Source of the DNA: a virus
Taxonomy: Duplodnaviria; Caudoviricetes
DNA length: 64,000 nt
IMG/VR virus record: IMGVR_UViG_3300032274_000001
Location: 8,939 to 72,938 of that record
Direction: 5' to 3' (one strand)
Below, piece after piece: positions 8,754 through 39,559 of the stretch. The position numbers were made by a program, and so were the translations under genes. The notes under the pieces were generated by a model. It had not been told where the DNA came from. It was given only the letters and a program-made list of their open reading frames with translations, and ran no database searches. The stretch's first letter is position 1; every line of letters starts with the position of its first letter.

Positions 8754-8782
8754 AATATGCACAAGCCTGAACCCCGTGTAAA
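8754..8782 (-). promoter_or_regulatory. Candidate sigma70-type leftward promoter
   Basis: Minus strand TTTACA-17 nt-CATATT, about 28 nt upstream of the 8726 start. Confidence 0.55.
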
Positions 8783-8878
8783 CCCCCGATCGCAGTTTAC
8801 CGAGAATCGACAGAAAGCCCCCTGTAAACAACGGCTCTCTCTCGGGCGGGTACGGTTCTGTGATAGGGGCTACCCCTC

Positions 8879-13380: not shown

Positions 13381-14076
13381 TCAGAGCAGCGGAAGCTGCG
13401 GGTCTTGGGGGAGTGCTCCACGCTCGCGGAGTTCCATGCGCTTGAGCACTCCGTACCATCGGGAAGGCGGGGGCGGTGATCCACCGAGGCTGATCAAGCC
13501 GTGATCGTTTCGCAGGATAGCGATAGCCAGGGCCCGCCAAGAGGGCGCCAGGTTGCGCCTCTCAAGCTCCGGCGGCACCTCTTGGGGCATCCCCTCGGGG
13601 TACCCCCGAGACTCCCAAAGGCGAGCGTAGGCCCTCACGCGGGCATGTAGGCCCACGCCACCGAAGGTCTGGCCGTTCGGGGATGAGGCCTCTCCCGAGC
13701 TCAGTGAGAATCCCCGACTGGTGCTCCACTTGTGTAGGGCTCGGGCTGCTTCGGCGTTGGCTGCCCGCTGTTGATCGGGGCTCAGCAGGTGGAACCCGCC
13801 TCGGTACTTGGCGGGCACTCCGGTAGCGATGCACATGGAAGCTTGTCCGAGCCAGGCGATACGGTTGGAGCTGGAGTTGGAGAGGAAGTGCTCGCACGAG
13901 ACGGGCCACTTGGCGAGGACTTGCTGTAGAGCGGACTGAAACCGTGGCAGGTCTTGGAGGAAGTCGCAGTAGGCTTGCTTGGCCTCGTCGCTCGACATCC
14001 CCGCAGGGGGCGCCTCGGCGTACATGCCAGCGGGGACGCACTCCCACGCTGTCCAAGGGTGGTAGATTCGGGCCAT
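13381..14076 (-). CDS. IbrAB-associated protein with DUF3440-like C-terminal module
   Basis: YARLWESRGYPEGMPQEVP..LE....PSWRALAIAILRND, similar to the tail of the 15027 protein. Confidence 0.7.
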   Translation of the reverse strand: MARIYHPWTAWECVPAGMYAEAPPAGMSSDEAKQAYCDFLQDLPRFQSALQQVLAKWPVSCEHFLSNSSSNRIAWLGQASMCIATGVPAKYRGGFHLLSPDQQRAANAEAARALHKWSTSRGFSLSSGEASSPNGQTFGGVGLHARVRAYARLWESRGYPEGMPQEVPPELERRNLAPSWRALAIAILRNDHGLISLGGSPPPPSRWYGVLKRMELRERGALPQDPQLPLL

Positions 14077-14088
14077 GGTCAGGGCTGC

Positions 14089-15030
14089 CTAGCCGACTTC
14101 CTCGAACTGCTCGTCTTCCTCTGCGGCAGAAAGCTCTGCCTCCCAGGAGTCGGAAAAGTCGCTGTTCTCGAACAGGGCGGCGATGCCGGTGATCTGCTTC
14201 ATGCGCAGGAGTTCATCTGCGCTCATGCCGATGTGACTGCAGATCCACCGGTCGCCCTTGCCCATCTCGACGAGCTCGGCAACGATCGCCGACATCAGCT
14301 CGATGTTATGAGAGCCCCGGGCCCGGTTGTGACGAATCGTGGACGCCATCCGGTCGCTCAGGTTCTTGTCGATGACCACGCAGGGCAAGCACCCGTTCTC
14401 CCGCTCCCGGATCTCAGCATTCTGCTTGAGGATGAGGAACCGGTGGAAGCCATCGACGACGATGTACCGGTCGGACTCCTGGTCGTAGAATGTGACGACT
14501 GGTTGCGTGTAGCCGTCTGCTTCGATCGACACGCGCAGTAGCTCCATCTCGGGCGGCGCAACGGCATTGGGGTTGTAGTCGTTGGCCTGGATCTTATCGA
14601 TGGGAACGGGCCGCACGTCGTAGACGGGAGATCGGGTGGGCCGCTCCGGGGCCGGGTAGGAGCCGTTGTCGTCGTGGACTTCCCTGCCCGTGACGGGAGG
14701 GTTGAACACGGAGATAAGCGTCACGTCCGTCAGGGCTTGGAACGTGTGCGGGTCGTTCTCGTCCAGGACGTAAGTGTCGCCGGGGACGATGGTCCACTCG
14801 TCGCCTGTGGCCTCGCTACGCAGGATGCCCTTGCCGGCGATGCAATGGCAGGCCTCCTGGTGGTGCTTGTAGTGCCACCGCTGTGGAGCCCCCTGGGGAA
14901 TCTCTGTGCGGTGCATGGAGAAGCCCAGGCCATCGGCGGCAAGCACGGGGCGGAAGCTGGTGAAGCCGCCCTGTGGGCACTGGACTTCGCGGTCGCTGCC
15001 CTCAAGCGAGGAGTGGCGTATCACTTTCAT
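14089..15030 (-). CDS. Ectoine synthase (EctC)-like cupin fused to ParB-like IbrB/YbdM domain
   Basis: N-terminal HYKHHQEACHC..G.G..., PG..Y.LD..D.H, VFNPPVTGREVHD; C-terminal ANDYNPNAVAPPEMELL..SI..DGYTQP, VDGFHR, TIRHNRARGSH. Confidence 0.88.
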   Translation of the reverse strand: MKVIRHSSLEGSDREVQCPQGGFTSFRPVLAADGLGFSMHRTEIPQGAPQRWHYKHHQEACHCIAGKGILRSEATGDEWTIVPGDTYVLDENDPHTFQALTDVTLISVFNPPVTGREVHDDNGSYPAPERPTRSPVYDVRPVPIDKIQANDYNPNAVAPPEMELLRVSIEADGYTQPVVTFYDQESDRYIVVDGFHRFLILKQNAEIRERENGCLPCVVIDKNLSDRMASTIRHNRARGSHNIELMSAIVAELVEMGKGDRWICSHIGMSADELLRMKQITGIAALFENSDFSDSWEAELSAAEEDEQFEEVG

Positions 15031-16354
15031 CGGCGGGCTTCTCCTTCTGCTGAATGGGTAGGTCTTTGTACTTGGCCATGATGGCCTTCTGTCGTGCCAT
15101 CTGCTCCTGAGATGGGGCGAGTCCGAGGTACTTGCAGGTGTGGTCGTTCTTCAGAATCGTGATGGCAAATCGCTTCCACGACGCCACCATGCCGGGGTTG
15201 GTCTTGAGCATGTCGCAATGGTCGGGGAAGCGTTGGATGCGAACGCGCCGCAGGGTCTTGTTGCCGTGAGAGGTGAGGCCGTTGAGCTTGAACGGGATGC
15301 CATGCTGCTCGAGCTGCTCGATGATCTCGTCGGGGAGTCCGCGGCCCAACCTTCCCCAGACCTTGAACGACTGGATGAACCGCCTACGAAAATTTGCCGC
15401 CACCCCCTCGGGGAGCGTGTCGAGTAGGAACTTGACGAACGACTTCCAGGTGTGGCCCTCGGGGAGTTTGAAGCTGCGGTAGCCGAGCTGCTTGCCGTAG
15501 GTGGCGACGAAGTTGGCGCCCTGGACGCGCGCGCAGAGCTTCGCCCACACGGGCGGGTCGATCACGCGGTACAGGTTAAGGCTCGACTTCGACTCACTCA
15601 TGAACGGCGAGGCAACGCGCATCTTCCCCAGCGGAACATTGGCTCGGTAGAAGATGTCGTAGAGGCGGTTGTACTCCCACTCGAATCGAGCGTTGGCGAT
15701 CCAGACATCCTCGGTGCGCCAGTCGTAGACCGGGTACACGTTGAACACGTTGGGCCCGTTGCGCTTGGTCCACATCCGCCCGCCGAGGGTTTCCTTGCGG
15801 GGGTTCATGATGGCGCGGAAGCGGTTGAGGCTCTCAGCGGTCCTGATGCCAATGACACAGGCTGTGCGTTCGCCCTGTGAGTACCACTCGCCGAACTGGT
15901 CCCAGAAGTCCTCGTAGGACATGTCCTCCCGGAAGAAATCGAACGGGTGGTTGCCCATGTGGACGATGTAGTCCTGCTCAGGAAGAGGACGGATCCAGCG
16001 CTCGCGATCAGACTCGCCCCAGCACTGCCACTCGACATCGTAGGCACTGACCGTGCACGGCAGAGTGATTGGCATGCAGCACCAGTAGACGTCGAGGAGG
16101 TCGAGGTTTTTGCCCAAAATGCTGTGCATGAACTGGAGGCTGATCTCGTAGTTCGCCTCGTTGTCCAGGATCATGACGCCGATCTTCTTGGTGATGCCAT
16201 GCTTGCGCATGTAGTCGAGGAAGAGATTGAGAACGACGCCAGAGTCCTTGCCGCCGGAGAACGAGACGTAAATCCGGGGGAAGTTCTCGAACAGCCAGCC
16301 GATGCGCTCCATGGCGGCGTCGTAGACGTTGAGGTCGGGGTTGTAGGCTCTCAT
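15027..16354 (-). CDS. PAPS-reductase-like (PP-loop) IbrA/YbdN protein with DUF3440
   Basis: SFSGGKDS, GIRTAESLNRF, YPVYDWRTEDVW, MRVASPF motifs. Confidence 0.9.
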
Positions 16355-16399
16355 GCCGGGCCAGTCGTAAACGCTACGAGCGGTTTACGCAAGTCGTGG

Positions 16400-16984: not shown

Positions 16985-17686
16985 TCATCGTGCTCTCGCG
17001 GATACGGTCTTGGTCGCGACGGCTTCGCAGCCGGGCCAGTTGAAGTCTTTCTTGGCGGCCTTGGCGGCCTGATTGATTGCCGTCTGATTCACCTGCAAGG
17101 CGTTCATTGGAACCTTGCCCTCGGAGACAGCCGTGACCAGGGCTTTCATGTCGGTGACTCGGCCCTTCCAGGTCGTACGGGTAGCCACCCCTTGGGGGCC
17201 CTTGGGGCGCTCCACAGCGGGCGCTACCGCAGGGGTAGACTCTGCCTCGGCGACCACCTCGGCGGCGCTCTCAGTGTCCCCTGAGGCTTCCAGGCGGGCT
17301 GCCTCGGCCTCTGCGGCTCGGAGTTGTTCCTTGCGGGCAGCCTCGGCGGCTTTGCGTTCCTCCTCGGCGATGCGGGCTTGCTCGGCTTCCTGCCAAGCGA
17401 GCATGGCGGACTTGAGGCCGGCTTCGGCTTGCTCGCCCTGTTCGCGCACCTGGGCCTTGAAGGCCCGGAGGTTGGCCGTGTGGGCGTTGGCTTCCTTGAT
17501 GAGGGGGTCGAAGGCGGAGTCTACGCGCTTGAGCCACGGCTTCACGTCCTCGGTGAGGATACGGCCGGCGTGCTCGTAGTCGTCGTGGGATTGGATCCCG
17601 GTGGCGCCCTCGGCGAGAGCCACCAAGTGGGTGGACTCCAGGGCGACGTCGGCGGGGGTGGACTTGGCTTCGTGGGCGACGGTCAT
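16985..17686 (-). CDS. Coiled-coil phage protein of recombination regions
   Basis: Long helix, then RTTWKGRVTD...NQTAINQAAK...WPG; start ATG 17686. Confidence 0.65.
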   Translation of the reverse strand: MTVAHEAKSTPADVALESTHLVALAEGATGIQSHDDYEHAGRILTEDVKPWLKRVDSAFDPLIKEANAHTANLRAFKAQVREQGEQAEAGLKSAMLAWQEAEQARIAEEERKAAEAARKEQLRAAEAEAARLEASGDTESAAEVVAEAESTPAVAPAVERPKGPQGVATRTTWKGRVTDMKALVTAVSEGKVPMNALQVNQTAINQAAKAAKKDFNWPGCEAVATKTVSARAR

Positions 17687-17699
17687 GCGGTTGGTCTCC

Positions 17700-18023
17700 T
17701 CAGTTTTTGCGACGACGCTTCTTCGGCTTGGCTGTCGTCGTAGGCGTTGCACTCGGTATCGGTGACGGCGTCACTTCGATGTACTTGTGCCCGGGGCAGA
17801 TCCGCTCGCCCTTCACCTCTCGGCACTTCACATGGCTACCCAAGGCGATTATGTCTTGGTGATGGGTCACGATGACCCCGTGAGCGTTCAGGATCGCCCG
17901 CTCTGCCACGTAGAGCCGGTAGGCTACTCCGCCCAGGGCGAGAGACAGCATGCCCATGCAGAGCCACACAGGGCCCCTGACGGGCCGACGCTTGGCGCGG
18001 TGCGGGTCTAGGAGGTCGGTCAT
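17700..18023 (-). CDS. Small membrane protein
   Basis: TM VWLCMGMLSLALGGVAY, basic tail. Confidence 0.5.
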   Translation of the reverse strand: MTDLLDPHRAKRRPVRGPVWLCMGMLSLALGGVAYRLYVAERAILNAHGVIVTHHQDIIALGSHVKCREVKGERICPGHKYIEVTPSPIPSATPTTTAKPKKRRRKN

Positions 18024-18181
18024 TGGGGTAGCCCCATCTGCGCTTCGTAAAGGCGGGCCAGGAGGGCGCTGATCGCCTCCTGGTCGTCGTCGCCAAGAAG
18101 CGATTGGAGGCCATCGAGAACCATCATCAGTTCGGGAACACTGAGGTCGATGGTCACCTTGATGTCGTCGAGGTCGGTCAC
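18020..18181 (-). CDS. Small hypothetical protein
   Basis: GTG 18181 overlaps the upstream stop. Confidence 0.45.
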   Translation of the reverse strand: MTDLDDIKVTIDLSVPELMMVLDGLQSLLGDDDQEAISALLARLYEAQMGLPQ

Positions 18182-18840
18182 TTCAGTTCTCCTCTCCGGG
18201 CAGCCTCGTTGAGCAGCCAGAGGCATCCGTTGAAGGCACGCTTGTCTTGGGGGTTGTCGAACGGGTGAGGGCGGAACGTGCCGTCTCGGCCGTGGCCGAT
18301 GGCCGCCCGGGTCTCGACCTTCACCCCGAAGGCGAACTCGATGCCCAACTCGTAGCCGGCGGTCTGGAGCTCGGCGCCGGAGATCCAAGACGACTTCCAG
18401 TCCTGCACTCCGACCTTGCCGTAGGCGATCCCGATGGAGTCGGCCGTCCACCCGAACCCCGATGGGTGCCAACCTCGGATCTCCAAGGCCATCTCCTGTG
18501 TCCCGTCTGGGTTCTCGATCCACAGCGGCTCGTACCCGACCAGCTCGCGCCACCCACGGTTGGCCTCAAGCTGGGGCTCGAACTCCGCAAGTACCTCGGG
18601 GTCGAGGTTGAGCTCGTCGAGTCTGCCCCGGATGTCGGCTTCGATGATCTCGTGGAGGATGGTCCCACGGTTGCGGTGCTCCTCGGTGAAGTCGGGCATC
18701 TCGTGTCGGCAGACCCGGTGCCAGGTGTTCACCACCGTCGTCGTGGGGAATAGCTTCTGTCCATCGACGCGGTACTCGTGGTGGGTCTCGTCGAAAGTGA
18801 ACGCTCGGGCCAAGAACTCTTCGCTGTACTTGAGGATCAT
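18178..18840 (-). CDS. PD-(D/E)XK exonuclease (RecB/Cas4-like fold)
   Basis: FDETHHEYRVDG..., RGTILHE, TADSI...DWKS...Q..GY. Confidence 0.8.
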   Translation of the reverse strand: MILKYSEEFLARAFTFDETHHEYRVDGQKLFPTTTVVNTWHRVCRHEMPDFTEEHRNRGTILHEIIEADIRGRLDELNLDPEVLAEFEPQLEANRGWRELVGYEPLWIENPDGTQEMALEIRGWHPSGFGWTADSIGIAYGKVGVQDWKSSWISGAELQTAGYELGIEFAFGVKVETRAAIGHGRDGTFRPHPFDNPQDKRAFNGCLWLLNEAARRGELK

Positions 18841-19061
18841 GGCTGGCCCAGTGCCTTGCGGTTGTTTTCGAGCCGCCGTTCCTCCATGGCCCCGTGCTGC
18901 TTGCAGTAGAGCCCATCTGGTCCGTGGCCGCGCTTGCGAGAGCACTGGCGAGAGTGCCACTGACCCTCGGGGTAGACTTCCTCAATGCACTTGCGGCGAT
19001 CCTCGGGGTATCCGTTCGGGTTGCCGCTCCACTCCCCGTACCTGCGACGCTCGGAGGTCAT
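18837..19061 (-). CDS. Small Cys/His protein
   Basis: QCSRK.GHG.DGLYCKQH. Confidence 0.6.
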   Translation of the reverse strand: MTSERRRYGEWSGNPNGYPEDRRKCIEEVYPEGQWHSRQCSRKRGHGPDGLYCKQHGAMEERRLENNRKALGQP

Positions 19062-20052: not shown

Positions 20053-20082
20053 GGTATACCATGACAAACGAGCCGATGTAAA
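20053..20082 (-). promoter_or_regulatory. Candidate leftward sigma70-type promoter
   Basis: Minus strand TTTACA-18 nt-TATACC with TG extension; shares TGTAAACCCCCG with the 8777 site. Confidence 0.5.
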
Positions 20083-20108
20083 CCCCCGGGCGAGTTTATC
20101 ACCCGGGC

Positions 20109-21490: not shown

Positions 21491-21843
21491 GCAAGGAAGA
21501 GGTCCTGTTGGTGCGCCGTCCACGGAGGATCGGAGCGCCATGATCGAAGGGATTATCATGCTCTTAATCGGGATAATCGTGGGCCTCGTTCCGTGGCGCA
21601 GTGTGCGGAAAGGAAACAAACGGGAGCCATGACCCAGCCCCTCTCACTCCAAGAAGCCAGGGGACAAATCACGCGACTCAAGAAAGCCGGTGACCGCTTG
21701 GCAAAGATCGTGCAGATCGGCGCAAACCTTGTCGGAGACGTGAGCCTCTCCGCGCCGTGCCAGCCCGTCATCGACTGGAACAAAGCAAAGAAACGCAAGA
21801 TCCCACCTGTGAGGCACCTCGTCCCGAAGGTGTGGAGAGAGGA

Positions 21844-22842
21844 ATGAAATTCGGCTCGCTCTTCTCTGGAATCGGAGGCATCGACCTGGGCCTCGAACGC
21901 GCTGGAATGCAATGCGCCTGGCAAGTGGAGCAAGATGAGTTCTGCCAACGAATCCTCGCCAAACACTGGCCAGATGTCCCTCGATTCGGAGATGTTCGGG
22001 ATGTCACCAGCGCCGAGCCCGTCGACCTCCTCGCCGGTGGTTTCCCCTGTCAGCCCTTCAGCGTCGCAGGCAACCAGCAAGGGACCGACGACGATCGGCA
22101 CCTGTGGCCCGAGTTCGCACGGCTGGTGCGTACTCTACGACCCCGTTGGGTGCTCGCTGAGAACGTCCCTGGCCTCCGAACTATCGCAGCTGACGAAGTG
22201 CTCAGCGATTTGGAGGCAGCAGACTACACCGCATGGCCGCTCGTGGTGGGTGCTCGCCATGTCGGAGCCCCTCACCGGAGAGACCGAGTTTGGATCGTGG
22301 CCCACGCCCAAGGCGGTGGACGGGAGAAGCAAAGGGAATGGGGGGGCTCGCAAATCACCCAGCCTCGACCAGATCGCAAGAGAGGGATCGTGGCCCACGC
22401 CAACAGCCACGGAGTACGGGAGCAACCAGTCCCCATCCGAGGGGGCTGCGATTCGTCCGAGCTTGGCGGGCTTGGTGTCGGCCAGGCCGACACCAACAGC
22501 GGCAGATGCGAACAGCAGCGGCTCGGCGGGGTACTCAACGGAAAGCGGGAGATCCGCAGGGGTGACGCTCACGGACGCGACGGTGAGGGGGTGGGCGACG
22601 CCCAACCAAACCAACCGGAAGTCCCCAGACCTCGAGACCACCGTTGGCCAGCCGGACCCGGCCAACCCCAACACGAATGGGAAGAGCCGCGCACGGTTGA
22701 ATCACCGGTGGGTGTGTCAGCTCCAGGGCTTCCCCGCAGACTGGCTCGACATCGAAGACAATCCCTGAAGGCTCTCGGCAATGCGTGTGTGCCTCAGGTG
22801 GTAGAACAGATCGGGAGGGCGATCATGGAACTGGGTGTCTGA
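21844..22842 (+). CDS. C5-cytosine DNA methyltransferase (main/alpha chain)
   Basis: Motifs I FSGIGG, IV GFPCQPFS, VI ENV, VIII HRRDRVW, X LGNACVPQ; no in-frame motif IX. Confidence 0.92.
   Translation: MKFGSLFSGIGGIDLGLERAGMQCAWQVEQDEFCQRILAKHWPDVPRFGDVRDVTSAEPVDLLAGGFPCQPFSVAGNQQGTDDDRHLWPEFARLVRTLRPRWVLAENVPGLRTIAADEVLSDLEAADYTAWPLVVGARHVGAPHRRDRVWIVAHAQGGGREKQREWGGSQITQPRPDRKRGIVAHANSHGVREQPVPIRGGCDSSELGGLGVGQADTNSGRCEQQRLGGVLNGKREIRRGDAHGRDGEGVGDAQPNQPEVPRPRDHRWPAGPGQPQHEWEEPRTVESPVGVSAPGLPRRLARHRRQSLKALGNACVPQVVEQIGRAIMELGV
21935..22768 (+). CDS. Nested +1-frame ORF, probable methyltransferase beta subunit
   Basis: Four (W/R)(P/A)TP repeats and terminal RLNHRWVCQLQGFPADW resembling motif IX. 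Confidence 0.7.
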   Translation: MSSANESSPNTGQMSLDSEMFGMSPAPSPSTSSPVVSPVSPSASQATSKGPTTIGTCGPSSHGWCVLYDPVGCSLRTSLASELSQLTKCSAIWRQQTTPHGRSWWVLAMSEPLTGETEFGSWPTPKAVDGRSKGNGGARKSPSLDQIAREGSWPTPTATEYGSNQSPSEGAAIRPSLAGLVSARPTPTAADANSSGSAGYSTESGRSAGVTLTDATVRGWATPNQTNRKSPDLETTVGQPDPANPNTNGKSRARLNHRWVCQLQGFPADWLDIEDNP

Positions 22843-24908: not shown

Positions 24909-25275
24909 GGACAAGAAGGTTCACGTGTTTGCGTGCACAGAGCACGACATGGCTCTTGGTGGTGGTCCTTTGCCCACGCATCCGAAAGCGATTGAGGTTC
25001 AGGATCGCATGACGAAGCCCATCAAGGGCGAACTGCGCGCCCTACGTAATGCCTACGAGGCCCTACGAAAACAGGGCTGGCGAGAGGTCATGTACGCGCC
25101 GAAGGATGGGTCAATGCTGGCGCTGATTCTTCCCGATTGTGCAGTGGTCGTAGAGGGGAACCGAGACAAGCATGGGTTCATGATGTTCGATGGCGACGGT
25201 TGGCCGTGTGACCCCGTGCTGTGGCGCCCCCTCGAAGAGGTAGACCCAGAGTACAAGGGGACACCCGGTGAGTGA
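24901..25275 (+). CDS. Hypothetical phage protein
   Basis: YAPKDGS...P.LWRPL pattern, coupled. Confidence 0.55.
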   Translation: MAEDKKVHVFACTEHDMALGGGPLPTHPKAIEVQDRMTKPIKGELRALRNAYEALRKQGWREVMYAPKDGSMLALILPDCAVVVEGNRDKHGFMMFDGDGWPCDPVLWRPLEEVDPEYKGTPGE

Positions 25276-26926
25276 CGCACTGACCCAGGCGCTTCATTAC
25301 CTGGACCTCGGCTACCTGCCCGTCCCCTGCCTGCCCAACGGAAGCACGTGGGTGAACTGGCGAGAGATGGACAAGCGCCCCCCCACGGAGTCGCGGCTAC
25401 GGGACTACTTCGAGGACCGCTCGGAGACGATGGTCAAGCTGGCCTTGCTGGGCGGGCTGTGCGCGATCCGGTGCGCCGGGGATAGGGCCGAGGCGTTGCT
25501 GGTCGAGCGAGGGTTGTCGATCCCACCAGGGGCCCCGGCGATCAACCAAGGCAACGTCTCGGTGTTCCTGCTCCGGGGCTTCGACGGAATCAAGAATCTC
25601 ACGGAGGGCTCGGCCCTGTTCACGGGCGGCGATGCGAAGTCGCCCGATCTGGTCGAGGTGCACGTCGGCAAGCTCGTAGCCGCACCCCCCTCGGAGGGCA
25701 CGCAATGGTTCGGCGAGTTGCCGCTGTTCCCCGAGCTCCCAGAGGTACCGGCGCCGCTGGCCGCGCTGATCCAGGATCGCATCAAGGAGGTGGAGGAGAA
25801 GAAGCAAGGCGGCGCCCACTGGGCAGCAGTGTCGCTGAGGGGTGTCGATTCTCATGACTCCGTCGAGGAGGCGCACCGTCTGTGCGGGTACCTGAACGCC
25901 AAGGGCCTACCGCTGGACGTGTCTCGAGAGATCATGATGGCGTTCGCGGACAGGTGCCACCCGTTGCCAATGCTGGTGTCCGACGTGGATGCGATTATGA
26001 GGCGCCGCGAGTGGGACGGCAACGACGACGGAGCGGAGCGGCCCGGGGTGGTGTGGCACGAGGATGAAATCGAGGCCCACGTGGAGATGCGTCTCAAGCC
26101 GGTGGCGACATCGTGGGTGGCCCCCACGCCGCTGCCGAGTGTGAACCAAGCCTTGCGGGGTGGGTTCAAGGGCGGGCGGATCTATCTCGTGGCGGGCGAG
26201 CCCGGGGCGGGCAAGACGGCGCTGGTGATTCAGACGCTAGTCAGGGCGGCCAAGGCGGGCATCAAGAGCTTCATGGTGTCGGCGGAGATGCCTCGCGACT
26301 CGATCTACGACCGGGAGATTGCCGCCGAGGGCCAGCTCGACGTCGGCAAGGTCGAGGACGGACTGGCCGACCCCCATGCGATGGCCTACGTGGCGGAGAA
26401 GCTGTCGGGGCTGCCGATCGCGTTGGCGAACAACTCGGTACGTTGCGTCCAGGACATCGTAGACCAGGTGAAGCTACACGAGCCGAAGCTGGTCGTGGTG
26501 GACTACTTGCAGTTGATCGCTCACGACGAGCGGGGCAGGGATACCCGGGAGCGGGTGGAGGCGGTGTCGAAGGGGCTAAAGGGGTTGGCGAAGCGCGAGG
26601 GGTGCGCGGTGGTGTGCGTGTCGTCGCTGACGAAGAAGGACAGCAAGCGAGCCGGGGAGGAGATGCCCACCAACGATCGCCTCCGGGAGTCTGGTGCGTT
26701 GCACTTCGACGCCGATGGCATTCTGCTCTTGGGCCGAGAGAACGGTCAGACCAAGTGCGCGCTGTCGAAGAACAAGTACGGGCCCATCGGGACGTTCGAC
26801 ATGGAGTTCAAGGGCTCGACGATGAGCTTCACCGAGAAGGGAGGGGCGGACGTCCCGGACGGGAGATTCCCCGACGACGACGCCGGCCCGGATGTGTTGG
26901 GGGAGGTGGTCGATGAGTTCTTCTAG
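25268..26926 (+). CDS. Prim-Pol-like/PriCT plus DnaB-family helicase fusion
   Basis: ALHYLDLGYLPVP...VAAPPS N-terminus; Walker A GEPGAGKT, SAEM, Walker B VVDYLQL, LRESGALHFDAD. Confidence 0.88.
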   Translation: MSDALTQALHYLDLGYLPVPCLPNGSTWVNWREMDKRPPTESRLRDYFEDRSETMVKLALLGGLCAIRCAGDRAEALLVERGLSIPPGAPAINQGNVSVFLLRGFDGIKNLTEGSALFTGGDAKSPDLVEVHVGKLVAAPPSEGTQWFGELPLFPELPEVPAPLAALIQDRIKEVEEKKQGGAHWAAVSLRGVDSHDSVEEAHRLCGYLNAKGLPLDVSREIMMAFADRCHPLPMLVSDVDAIMRRREWDGNDDGAERPGVVWHEDEIEAHVEMRLKPVATSWVAPTPLPSVNQALRGGFKGGRIYLVAGEPGAGKTALVIQTLVRAAKAGIKSFMVSAEMPRDSIYDREIAAEGQLDVGKVEDGLADPHAMAYVAEKLSGLPIALANNSVRCVQDIVDQVKLHEPKLVVVDYLQLIAHDERGRDTRERVEAVSKGLKGLAKREGCAVVCVSSLTKKDSKRAGEEMPTNDRLRESGALHFDADGILLLGRENGQTKCALSKNKYGPIGTFDMEFKGSTMSFTEKGGADVPDGRFPDDDAGPDVLGEVVDEFF

Positions 26927-36787: not shown

Positions 36788-39559
36788 GTGGCCCGGCGTG
36801 AGGTGACGGCTAGTCGCGGCAAGCAGCCGTCGCGCGCACGGAACAAGTCCGCCCGGGGTAAGACCTCCACCCAAAAGGCAGGCCCCCAGACCGAGCAGCG
36901 CGCCGGAGACGTCCAGGGCTTGTCGGCCTTCGACAAGTTCAACCGGGCTCTAGACCTGCTCGGCCAGGGGCGGATGTCTGACCTTCAGGATCCGTACCTG
37001 CAGCTCAGCTCCTGGTACTCAGGAGTCCAGGTCATCAGCATGAGCATGCAGCGGGCACCGTTCGTGCCTTGGATGACGGGTGAGCGCTCTGGGGAGATCA
37101 CGTCGGGGCCCCTGTACGACCTGACTAAGCAGCCGAACACGGCGCAAACGTGGGATCAATTCCTCGGCCAGGCGATCGTGCACATGCACGGGCCCAAGGG
37201 CGCGGCCTACATGCACAAGAAGGGCAAGCGGAGCATTGGCTTGCCCGAGGAGATCCGGCTCATCGACCCGCAGAGGGTCCATGCTGCAGTGTCCAGCGAG
37301 GACACGATGGAGCTCCGCGGTTGGAACATCGACCGGGGCCCCAACGGGGAGCCGCCACAGGAGATCCGTGGCGACGACAAAGACGACATCATCCCGATCT
37401 ACCTAGCCGCACACCCTACGGACCCGTACCAGTCGGTAAGCCCGCAGATTCCCGGCCAGCTAGACCTAGACACCGAGCGCATGGCGGCCCTGTACACGGC
37501 GTCTACGCTGGCCTCTGGGGGTAGTCCGGGGTTGCTGTTCTCGTTCCTGGGGGACTCGGATTGGGACGAGGAGCAGGGCCGGGCCGTCGAAGAGAAGCTG
37601 AAACAGAAGTACGGCACCCACGACGGCTACCGGATGGCTGCTGTGTCGGGGGATTGGAAGGTCCAGAACCTGGGCATGCGGCCCCGGGACATGGAGTTCA
37701 CGCAGTGGCGGAGTGCGATCATCAACATCATTGCTCGCCTTCTCGGCATCACGCCGTTGCTGCTGGCCCACTACGAGGGCGCCACGGGCCTCAGTGATGC
37801 CGGTTTGCAGGTCCAGGAGCGAGTCAACTACCGGCAGAAGTTCATTCCACTCGGCTCCAAGATTGCGAACGCTTGGCAGAAGGGCATCGTCAATCCGTAC
37901 AACCCAGCCATCGAGGTCTTGTTCGACTTCTCCCAGATCGAAGCCTTGCAGGAGGATTTCGCGGCGAAGCTGGTAGCCGCGCAGGCGTTGGCTCAGCTTC
38001 TGATCCCGCTGGAGCAGATCGACTCGCTACTGGACCTCGGGCTGGACTTGTCGAAGATCCCTTGGGCGAGTGATGTCCTGGTGCCCTTCGGCCAGGTGCC
38101 GGCGAGTCAGATGGGCGTTTCAACGGAGGACGCGGCAGAAGGGGACGCGCTGCCCACCGAGCCGCTTGCCGAGACCAGCGACAGCGGAGCGGGTGCCCTC
38201 AATGGTGCCCAGGCCAAGGAAGCGTTGAACATCATCTCCCAGGTCAGGCTGGGCAGTATCCCGAAGACGACAGCCGTGGCCCTCCTGGTGGCCATGAATG
38301 TTCCCCCGCAATTGGCGAGTCAGATGCTTGCCGATGTAAAGCTCGCGCCACCGGAGCAGATCGCCGACGAGGCTGCAGCGGCTAAGGGCGAGCGGGCCGT
38401 TGAGGGCGACCCGGACGAAGAAGTAGACCCGGCCTCGGTGGTGGAAACGCACTCCGAGGACGACGAGAACGCCCCGGACGTGGTGATTGAGGGACGTACC
38501 CTCAAGCTCTCCATCAAGCGCCGCAGGAAGGCCGCGAAGGACTACCAGAAGGCCCGAGAGAAGGCGGTCACGCGGGTCAAGGGCAAGGTCAAGCGCGCCA
38601 TGATGACGCATCGCTCAGCGGTGCTCCGGGCGTTCAATGAACAGGCAGGCACCAGCCTCCGAGCCATCATGCGGGCCCAGAATCCCGACATGACGGAGCT
38701 GCAGCTACATGAGCTGACCCCGGAAGAGGTGGTGGCGCGTGCACCGACCGAGCTCGAAGAGGCAGAGATCCAGGCCATTCTGGATGCCGTCGACCGGGGA
38801 TTGATCGCGGCGACGATCTCACCAGCGGTCGAGCAGGCCATGCGGCAAGCGGTTGCCGCCGGGGAGCCTACGCTCGAAGCCCTCGGCGTGGCCAAGGCGG
38901 ACCTCACCGAGTACCGCAAGCGGCTCCCTGCGCTGACGAAGAAGTACGCGGCGCAGACCCTGCAGAAGGGCCCCGCCACGGCAGCCGAGGAGATGGTCAA
39001 GCGGGCCGTCCGCAAGACGATCGTTGACGCCATCGACGAGGGCAAGACGGTAGCCCAGACGGCCAAGTCGTTGCGGGCGATGTTCAACGAGACGATGAGC
39101 GACGGCCGAGCCCGGGTGATTGCCCAGACCGAGACGGGCATCGCTATGAACACGGCCCAGTTCGAGCACTACAGCGCCAACGGGGTCGAGGAGATCGAGT
39201 GGCGGGCCCGTATGATTCGCACCCGCGAGTCCCACGAGGCCATGCACGGGACGCGGGCCAAGATCGGCGAGGAGTTCGGCAACGGCCTCAAGTACCCGCA
39301 GGAGCCGGGGGCACCGGCCGCCGAGGTGGTGGAGTGTCACTGCGGAGTGGTCCCGGTGGCGCGGTCGCGGTCGGAGGTGCAGGTCGAGGCGGCAGCGCTC
39401 GAGGAGATAGAAGGCCGCGGGGTTCAGGAGCGGGACGGGTCGTTTTACGTCATGACCGACGACGGTGTGGCGTTGAGTCGAGCCTTCGAGACTAGAGAGC
39501 AGGCACAGCAGCGCTTTGCAGCCATGGAGAGCTTCAGGCGCGAGGGGGTAGGGGCATGA
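36788..39559 (+). CDS. Portal protein fused to MuF (gpF-like) minor head domain
   Basis: HK97-like portal core (DMEFTQWR...ARLLGI, FDFSQIEALQED) and C-terminal RARVIAQTET...RTRESH...CHC. Confidence 0.9.
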   Translation: MARREVTASRGKQPSRARNKSARGKTSTQKAGPQTEQRAGDVQGLSAFDKFNRALDLLGQGRMSDLQDPYLQLSSWYSGVQVISMSMQRAPFVPWMTGERSGEITSGPLYDLTKQPNTAQTWDQFLGQAIVHMHGPKGAAYMHKKGKRSIGLPEEIRLIDPQRVHAAVSSEDTMELRGWNIDRGPNGEPPQEIRGDDKDDIIPIYLAAHPTDPYQSVSPQIPGQLDLDTERMAALYTASTLASGGSPGLLFSFLGDSDWDEEQGRAVEEKLKQKYGTHDGYRMAAVSGDWKVQNLGMRPRDMEFTQWRSAIINIIARLLGITPLLLAHYEGATGLSDAGLQVQERVNYRQKFIPLGSKIANAWQKGIVNPYNPAIEVLFDFSQIEALQEDFAAKLVAAQALAQLLIPLEQIDSLLDLGLDLSKIPWASDVLVPFGQVPASQMGVSTEDAAEGDALPTEPLAETSDSGAGALNGAQAKEALNIISQVRLGSIPKTTAVALLVAMNVPPQLASQMLADVKLAPPEQIADEAAAAKGERAVEGDPDEEVDPASVVETHSEDDENAPDVVIEGRTLKLSIKRRRKAAKDYQKAREKAVTRVKGKVKRAMMTHRSAVLRAFNEQAGTSLRAIMRAQNPDMTELQLHELTPEEVVARAPTELEEAEIQAILDAVDRGLIAATISPAVEQAMRQAVAAGEPTLEALGVAKADLTEYRKRLPALTKKYAAQTLQKGPATAAEEMVKRAVRKTIVDAIDEGKTVAQTAKSLRAMFNETMSDGRARVIAQTETGIAMNTAQFEHYSANGVEEIEWRARMIRTRESHEAMHGTRAKIGEEFGNGLKYPQEPGAPAAEVVECHCGVVPVARSRSEVQVEAAALEEIEGRGVQERDGSFYVMTDDGVALSRAFETREQAQQRFAAMESFRREGVGA

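Follow-up and report, generated by a model that had tools for sequence, protein, structure and literature searches.

Introduction

IbrA and IbrB of the Escherichia coli ECOR-9 island, YbdN and YbdM of E. coli K-12, and PHROGs 2302 and 2159 all represent the same arrangement, in which a 3'-phosphoadenosine 5'-phosphosulfate (PAPS)-reductase-like PP-loop protein with a DUF3440 region is encoded beside a ParB-fold protein. Few accessory genes of phages and prophages are as strongly conserved as IbrA/IbrB pairs. Here we describe a relative of this pair at positions 13381-16354 of a 64,000-nucleotide stretch of viral DNA (the window), which corresponds to bases 8939-72938 of the 72.9-kb IMG/VR virus record IMGVR_UViG_3300032274_000001. 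The locus is a distinct variant of the IbrA/IbrB pair, which is its closest known kind: it adds a cupin of the ectoine synthase (EctC) type and two further modules, termed ORF3N and ORF3C, and its IbrA belongs to a distinct subfamily with extra conserved cysteines. We put forward, tentatively, that this cassette encodes a multi-subunit, ATP-dependent modification machine directed at DNA or nucleotides.

Parts of the cassette resemble other described systems. DndB and DndC likewise bring together a ParB-superfamily protein and a PAPS-reductase-like PP-loop ATP pyrophosphatase in a DNA context (PMC10853773), but the cassette has no DndA, DndD or DndE, carrying a cupin and ORF3 instead, and its IbrA falls far below the DndC cut-off. 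Phage ParB-CTPase-fold fusions also join a ParB N-domain with C- and P-motifs to an enzymatic domain in a mobile element (bioRxiv 10.1101/2025.10.10.680097); the text and supplement of that survey mention no Ectoine_synth, cupin or PAPS-reductase partners. EctC encoded in ectABC(D) clusters (5BXX/5BY5 and 5ONM/5ONN/5ONO) has the cupin fold, iron site, pocket and lid in common with the cassette cupin. The same cassette is present in deposited phage genomes, as gp103-gp107 of Mycobacterium phage Gaia and in Pseudoalteromonas phage XCL1123. A literature search returned no functional study of the cassette and no reported biochemical function for IbrA/IbrB, and the GenBank records give labels only.

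A three-gene form of a five-module cassette

The locus is occupied by three consecutive minus-strand open reading frames (ORFs), encoding P0001 (IbrA), P0002 (an EctC::IbrB fusion) and P0003 (ORF3). An initial annotation of this DNA had proposed three adjoining genes here, and the ORF calls and profile matches confirm that they are real. It had also described the second product as a fusion of an EctC-like cupin with a ParB-type domain, which holds, as P0002 matches both Ectoine_synth and phrog_2159, and the 12-nt gap between EctC::IbrB and ORF3 is as it claimed. The overlap between ibrA and the fusion gene, on the other hand, had been given as 4 nt and is actually 29 nt (15002-15030). The longer overlap is supported by Met-1 of EctC::IbrB at 15030, which is invariant in 27 homologues. 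The label DUF3440-like was right for about 40 residues at the C-terminus of ORF3 and wrong for the remainder, DUF3440 proper being the C-terminal half of IbrA. ORF3, too, is a fusion, made up of the conserved partner proteins ORF3N and ORF3C, and is probably part of the same machine. This genome carries the doubly fused three-gene form of a five-module cassette (IbrA, EctC-type cupin, IbrB, ORF3N and ORF3C).

Linkage, gene order and fusions across phages

The EctC::IbrB fusion, which could have been a one-off, is conserved elsewhere. By blastn, ibrA and ectC-ibrB share 69% DNA identity with Mycobacterium phages Gaia and Nebkiss and match XCL1123 more weakly. The second protein of Gaia (gp104) and of XCL1123 was named 'ectoine synthase/ParB multidomain protein' by the depositors; the XCL1123 annotation assigns the cupin and IbrB to separate ORFs, whereas here they are fused. 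In Gaia (locus L042), ORF3 is split into gp106 (ORF3N) and gp107 (ORF3C) and the unrelated gp105 is inserted, while both pairs are fused in the present genome. Gp105 (L001:4625-4999), a protein of 124 amino acids (aa) encoded between gp104 and gp106, gave no alignment with the ORF3N of other phages. More than 120 cluster representatives in a large protein collection match the fusion at 61-70% identity, all with Pfam Ectoine_synth and about 100 also with ParB_N. Among 50,697 deposited phage records an EctC-like domain occurs in five, representing four distinct phages, and adjoins IbrA in each. A scan of isolate genomes with a single protein returned three unfused Bacteroides IbrB loci only (L007-L009).

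A scan of IMG/VR returned at least 592 matching stretches, and the five parts were mapped onto the best 80 IMG/VR loci. IbrB was present in 80, IbrA in 79, EctC in 71, ORF3N in 67 and ORF3C in 71; the single locus without IbrA is a contig that ends before that gene, and about five of the ORF3C matches, in loci without EctC, fall within the tail of IbrA itself. IbrB lies alongside EctC in all 71 EctC loci, and IbrA is present in all but the one cut-off contig. The remaining nine loci lack EctC and, except for L086, also ORF3N. IbrB is 56-78% identical to the window copy throughout, EctC-bearing and EctC-less loci alike, plain phage and Bacteroides versions of the pair included. IbrA identity, by comparison, is 62-75% in EctC loci and 28-44% in EctC-less loci, and by this measure the IbrA of EctC-bearing loci is a subfamily of its own. 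Locus L086 (L086:3701-7749) contains two tandem IbrAB systems and no EctC: IbrA (433 aa) and IbrB precede another ParB protein of 212 aa, a 132-aa ORF3N-like protein and another IbrA of 402 aa. This arrangement indicates that ORF3N is able to accompany IbrA/IbrB without the cupin.

Gene order and gene boundaries vary. Of the 71 EctC loci, 37 have the cupin joined to IbrB and 34 encode it on its own. ORF3 stands between EctC and IbrB in four loci (L065, L074, L077 and L078) and comes first in L015, L016 and L087, and IbrA comes last in L011, L012, L053, L054 and L058. ORF3N, typically a separate gene of about 117-140 aa in relatives, and ORF3C are separate overlapping genes in all 66 IMG/VR relatives that carry both, although a search with P0003 found them fused in 37 other cluster representatives (41-59% identity). 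Furthermore, metagenomic proteins of 368-396 aa (P0206, P0219, P0220, P0224 and P0235) are IbrB::ORF3N fusions, which complement the EctC::IbrB fusion. Taken with ORF3N::ORF3C, these fusions chain the parts in the series EctC-IbrB-ORF3N-ORF3C. No gene outside the cassette was conserved across the 80 loci in the neighbour analysis. Given the fusions, the constant linkage and the lack of any other conserved neighbour, the modules very likely act together, and judged from these gene arrangements they are probably subunits of one machine. We read the cassette as one self-contained, mobile module. The search for EctC-ParB fusions and their neighbourhoods that the initial annotation had suggested has thus shown the fusions to be widespread and their linkage to IbrA/IbrB to be constant.

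The EctC-type cupin

Residues 1-127 of P0002 match Pfam Ectoine_synth (PF06339) with 132.8 bits (cut-off 27), the NCBIfam 'ectoine synthase' model (NF009806) with 135.1 bits (cut-off 128) and the solved EctC 5BXX with an E value of 2e-28; identity to S. alaskensis EctC is about 45% over the alignment by manual count. The metal site and lid reported in the initial annotation are present. The iron ligands Glu59, Tyr87 and His95 align to EctC Glu-57, Tyr-84/85 and His-92/93 and are invariant in 27 homologues, and the C-terminal lid reads VFNPP.TG.EVHD. Substrate and product contacts are retained as well, namely Ser25, Arg27, Thr42, Tyr54, His57 and Phe109 (EctC Ser23/Arg25/Thr40/Tyr52/His55/Phe106), and position 38 is His, matching S. 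alaskensis EctC. Most of these ligands and contacts are invariant in the family, and no sampled member of the clade departs from the others. The roles of the corresponding EctC residues in metal and substrate binding have been assigned (PMC6344544).

On the other hand, the cupin departs from EctC of ectABC(D) clusters in several respects. Trp-21 is completely conserved in 437 cluster-encoded EctC proteins and is conserved, sometimes with a two-residue shift, in 145 orphan EctC proteins (PMC6344544). In the fusion family it is replaced by an invariant Phe23, and split relatives have Phe at or beside this position. Trp52 and Cys61 are added as clade-specific residues, often with Cys18. Among 1.84 billion representatives we found 505 EctC-type clusters. 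A quick maximum-likelihood tree placed all 29 sequences carrying both Trp52 and Cys61 in one group of 30, with a Shimodaira-Hasegawa-like approximate likelihood ratio test (SH-aLRT) value of 91. This group holds every fused and split cassette copy, with the two forms interleaved, and lies apart from the chromosomal EctC of Streptomyces, Paraburkholderia and Nitromaritima. The quick tree thus lends moderate support to a separate clade of cassette cupins. Some EctC-type proteins of about 246-278 aa (P0244, P0248, P0255, P0266, P0274, P0284, P0288 and others), which the query matched in two stretches, appear from this pattern to be tandem double-cupin forms.

The most familiar explanation would be that the cupin is an auxiliary metabolic gene (AMG) product making ectoine from a host-supplied precursor for osmotic protection of the infected cell. 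We consider this highly improbable. It is true that the domain exceeds the Pfam and NCBIfam 'ectoine synthase' cut-offs, that databases give such proteins this name (for example in a Thiolinea metagenome-assembled genome), and that a solitary P. syringae EctC complemented an ectC mutant (PMC5924519). However, the absence of EctA and EctB noted initially for the window holds for the entire 72.9-kb record, and neither occurs among the conserved neighbours of the 80 loci. The cupin is constantly linked to IbrB, and to IbrA where the contig allows; it co-occurs with ORF3 and with a distinct IbrA subfamily; its clade is separate and Trp-21 is Phe; and the cassette extends beyond saline habitats, to phages that infect soil mycobacteria and to a phage from human faeces. 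The linkage, the permuted gene order, the separate clade and the lack of ectA and ectB agree with the earlier proposal that the cupin is a partner of IbrA/IbrB and not an osmolyte gene. Profile and iron site place the cupin in the EctC family, while its context, its clade and the replacement of Trp-21 set it apart from canonical ectoine synthases. It probably acts on a related compound, an amino-acid-like N-acyl-diamine or cyclic amidine, and the cassette is almost certainly not a salt-stress gene. Because the cupin exceeds the NCBI and Pfam thresholds, metagenome surveys of AMGs have probably misassigned the viral proteins that they list as 'ectoine synthase'.

IbrA

IbrA matches Pfam DUF3440 with 193.8 bits (cut-off 25), PAPS_reduct with 36 bits (cut-off 22.5) and phrog_2302 with an E value of 8e-105. 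A PP-loop domain covers about residues 1-265, and a predicted helical DUF3440 domain at 240-419 ends in the tail motif SW+RFAItILKNDH.CKYLG. The PP-loop SGGKDS (residues 33-38) is intact and invariant in the family. An AlphaFold2 (AF2) model built from 46 sequences had a predicted local distance difference test score (pLDDT) of 82.7 and matched PAPS and adenosine 5'-phosphosulfate (APS) reductases in Foldseek (E 7e-7). With VIA, the N-domain (about residues 4-265) aligned best to the PAPS domain of FAD synthase (8ROM; Z 15.6, root-mean-square deviation (rmsd) 2.5, 166 aligned residues), followed by APS/PAPS reductases and CysD (Z 13-15) and MesJ, the E. coli TilS (Z 11.8); the VIA-wide search with the whole protein reported the N-domain (residues 4-265) only. 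Further fold matches were NcsA, GMP synthase, NAD synthetase, TtuA and LarE.

IbrA fails the CysH equivalogs TIGR02057 (21.6 bits against 254) and TIGR00434 (20.5 against 165), and the catalytic Cys motif ECG[LI]H was not found on inspection of P0001. It also fails the DndC equivalog TIGR03183 (25.7 bits against 290.4), while a match to the PADLOC DndC profile extends over about 100 residues (E 1.7e-8). EctC-linked IbrA proteins have near-invariant Cys92-Cys93, Cys100 and Cys111, whereas generic IbrA retains Cys93 only. Such cysteines might be ligands of a metal or an Fe-S cluster, or else sulfur carriers.

The cysteines also figure in a thiolation model, in which the cassette would transfer sulfur to DNA or to a base in the manner of Dnd or Ssp, the cysteines of the IbrA subfamily carrying a persulfide or an Fe-S cluster. 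The cysteine pattern itself favours such chemistry, a functional cysteine dyad has been described for DndC (PMC10853773, PMC12839542), similar folds are seen in APS reductase and in NcsA and TtuA, which are [4Fe-4S] PP-loop thiolases, and the cupin (Cys18, Cys61 and Cys63) and ORF3 (Cys61 and Cys82) contain extra conserved cysteines. Nevertheless, we regard sulfur transfer as improbable: the cassette contains no cysteine desulfurase and no DndD/E or SspB/C partner, the DndC model is missed by a wide score difference, and an EctC-type cyclase would have no obvious role in it.

IbrB

Residues 81-309 of P0002 match phrog_2159 with an E value of 1e-79. A ParB_N match at residues 139-202 scored 20.8 bits in Pfam, below the cut-off of 26.3, and the family profile matched Spo0J (4UMK), Noc (7OL9) and SbnI (5UJE) weakly (E 0.003-0.03). 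ParB Box I is present as GYTQPVV at 173-179 (GYTQP.V), and the P-motif GxxR as GFHR at 194-197 (VDGFHR). All 84 IbrB sequences compared, among them phage copies from EctC-less loci and three chromosomal copies from Bacteroides, keep Box I, GxxR and the motif RMASTIRHNRARG.H unchanged. Box I and GxxR are likewise invariant among the homologues of the fusion. The C-terminal region looks like a helix-turn-helix (HTH). With the chromosomal Bacteroides IbrB proteins (L007-L009) the domain shares 63-65% identity, and such conservation across phyla is unusually strong for a phage accessory protein.

ParB-fold proteins bind CTP, ATP or GTP, and the choice of nucleotide varies with the fusion partner (bioRxiv 10.1101/2025.10.10.680097). 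This is consistent with another role for the cassette, that of a small-molecule factory, in which a free metabolite or nucleotide derivative would be made or destroyed to act on host physiology or immune signalling, with no covalent modification of DNA. The product might be an ectoine-like cyclic amidine, an adenylated amino-acid conjugate or a signal mimic, and IbrB would then be an ATP- or CTP-using enzyme subunit like SerK, SbnI or sulfiredoxin. The ParB/Srx fold does include small-molecule kinases, P0002 weakly matches SbnI and SerK, and the cupin retains the residues that hold the alpha-amino/carboxylate head of N-gamma-acetyl-diaminobutyrate (PMC6344544). We consider this role unlikely, though worth keeping in mind. 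The ParB-like layout of IbrB, its probable HTH and its 63-65% identity between Bacteroides and a high-GC phage suggest that its partner is a universal macromolecule; sulfate metabolism apart, the closest relatives of IbrA to have been studied, DndC and TilS, act on nucleic acids; and the cassette comes without transporter or precursor-supply genes.

ORF3

ORF3 has no Pfam, NCBIfam or PADLOC family. An AF2 model built from 38 fused homologues (pLDDT 91.8, predicted template modelling score (pTM) 0.83) is all-helical, and the high pTM over the whole chain speaks for a single globule formed by both halves. In a Foldseek search against the Protein Data Bank (PDB) the model had no match below E 0.1, VIA-align in wide mode gave at best Z 4.4 (rmsd 2.9 over 60 residues) with no convincing PDB relative, and a protein atlas search yielded no usable lead, with scores of at most 0.88. 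ORF3N has the invariant residues W11, E12, W57, N71 and G77. ORF3C is recognizable by its tail motif, LAPSW+ALAIAILRNDH..SLG. Residues 164-204 of ORF3 are homologous to the final part of DUF3440 in IbrA, residues 377-417 (hhalign probability 93.8%, E 1.7e-7), and the fused ORF3 homologue P0134 exceeds the Pfam DUF3440 cut-off on this stretch. The tail motif of about 40 residues therefore occurs twice in the cassette, in IbrA and in ORF3. A complex prediction for EctC::IbrB with ORF3 returned a score of 0.00, which is no answer and speaks neither for nor against binding.

A candidate modification machine

Of the roles considered, a multi-subunit machine that modifies DNA or nucleotides at the expense of ATP is the one we favour, with some reserve. 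The linkage and fusions, the invariant PP-loop, the retained iron site and the invariant ParB motifs count in its favour, as do the resemblance of IbrA and IbrB to DndC and DndB and the position of the cassette in a leftward early operon beside two exonuclease-like genes. Our data establish gene anatomy, conservation, linkage and folds; the substrate, product and benefit suggested below are drawn from comparison with DndB/DndC, TilS-type PP-loop enzymes and EctC.

In such a machine, IbrB, with its ParB fold, intact predicted nucleotide pocket and likely HTH, would bind DNA, possibly as a nucleoside triphosphate (NTP)-dependent clamp, and position the other parts. IbrA, as a PP-loop ATP pyrophosphatase, would adenylate an oxygen of the target, which may be a base carbonyl or a phosphate of the backbone or of a nucleotide. 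The iron cupin would make, cyclise or open an amino-acid-like N-acyl-diamine or cyclic amidine, and its product would be either the incoming group or a group processed after transfer. ORF3 might serve as a helical scaffold, with the second copy of the IbrA tail motif docking to other subunits. The product would be modified phage (or host) DNA or a modified nucleotide, and the benefit may lie in protection from host defence or in control of early DNA transactions. The initial annotation had suggested that the PP-loop enzyme transfers a small amine or amidine, made or cyclised by the cupin, to DNA or a nucleotide, giving an anti-restriction modification or a signal molecule; our results lend no support to this particular chemistry or to an anti-restriction role, which stay conjecture.

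A more specific form of this idea is a DNA or nucleotide hypermodification of an as yet unknown type. Here a ParB-type, NTP-dependent clamp would carry the PP-loop adenylating enzyme and the EctC-type iron cyclase along DNA, and an amino-acid-derived group attached to a base would be cyclised to an amidine ring. We think this rather unlikely as stated. If true, it would represent a new phage counter-defence chemistry and would give the IbrAB family its first biochemical function.

Several points weigh against a modification machine. The cupin pocket looks better suited to a small, free amino-acid-like ligand than to DNA, and physical contact among the parts is deduced from gene fusions only. 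We know of no IbrAB module for which a modification, a product or a phenotype has been measured; the sole phenotype in print for IbrAB is reportedly the activation of prophage eib genes (Sandt et al., in 2002). This activation fits a regulatory role as well as modification. The SEED label for IbrAB is 'coactivators of prophage gene expression' (quoted in a table of PMC5874904), and DndB, the closest studied analogue of IbrB, has been reported to be a transcriptional regulator, more precisely an ATP-dependent repressor (PMC10853773).

The EctC-bearing variant nevertheless offers a chemical handle on the IbrA/IbrB pair, given that the cupin active site is well understood for an N-acyl-diamino-acid or cyclic amidine. 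With this handle, and with the cassette occurring in a cultivable BSL-1 system, phage Gaia on M. smegmatis, the function of IbrAB becomes directly testable.

Genomic context and possible regulation

The virus record is estimated to be 84% complete by CheckV, and the GC content of the window is about 64%. A search of sequencing runs found the same DNA in microbial-mat metagenomes, two of which may represent the sample it came from, and no RNA run was among the matching runs. The cassette lies within a leftward early operon that also contains two exonuclease-like genes (Table 1). The operon diverges from a rightward block with a C5 DNA methyltransferase and a DnaB-like helicase and, further on, a portal/head-morphogenesis gene.

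Table 1 Features of the cassette and of neighbouring genes in the window
Feature	Position	Strand	Description
ibrA (P0001)	15002-16354	-	450 aa; PP-loop PAPS-reductase-like N-domain and predicted helical DUF3440 domain
EctC::IbrB fusion (P0002)	14089-15030	-	313 aa
EctC-type cupin domain	14641..15030	-	P0002 residues 1-130
IbrB domain	14089..14640	-	P0002 residues 131-313; ParB/Srx-type N-domain and HTH-like C-terminal region
ORF3 (P0003)	13381-14076	-	231 aa
ORF3N	13717..14076	-	ORF3 residues 1-120; conserved helical partner protein
ORF3C	13384..13650	-	ORF3 residues 143-231; bears the copy of the IbrA/DUF3440 tail motif
Palindrome GTAAAC-N10-GTTTAC	16367..16388	.	12 nt before the ibrA start codon (ATG); putative operator or RNA hairpin
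Exonuclease-like gene	16985-17752		
Exonuclease-like gene	18178-18960		
C5-type DNA methyltransferase	21757-22842	+	phrog_363, E 1e-78
DnaB-like helicase	25268-26926	+	

Three GTAAAC-N10/11-GTTTAC sites were found in the window, two of them exact (8778-8800 and 16367-16388) and one (20078-20099) with a single mismatch, against an expectation of 0.00-0.03 from shuffled sequences. They flank the leftward early operon at either end, with one directly before ibrA. On their sequence and placement, these palindromes may form an operator set or RNA hairpins, and the putative HTH of IbrB or a phage repressor may be their binder.

The sites raise the question of whether the cassette is a regulatory module instead, with IbrB as a DNA-binding switch for early/late phage genes or for host genes, the cupin as a ligand sensor, and IbrA and ORF3 as co-factors. 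Regulators that combine a cupin with a DNA-binding domain are common. A weak PuuR match also points in this direction, as do the IbrAB label and the DndB precedent given above. In a sensor, however, it would be unusual for the cupin to be a separate protein, as in 34 of 71 loci, or for ORF3 to intervene before IbrB, as in four. Catalysis is indicated by the unchanging PP-loop, by the complete catalytic iron site and by the fact that a 450-aa enzyme keeps 62-75% identity among unrelated phages. One would also expect a regulator to vary in step with the operators of each phage, but IbrB hardly changes between phyla. On balance, a purely regulatory role seems to us a fairly poor fit, and we retain the modification machine as the preferred interpretation.

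The C5 methyltransferase gene means that this phage carries one conventional DNA-modification gene besides the cassette. The portal/head-morphogenesis gene of the rightward block is a 923-aa ORF (36788-39559, plus strand), in which portal profiles match residues 12-393 and portal, head-morphogenesis and minor-head profiles match residues 526-874, so that the product may combine a portal with an SPP1 gp7/Mu F-like domain.

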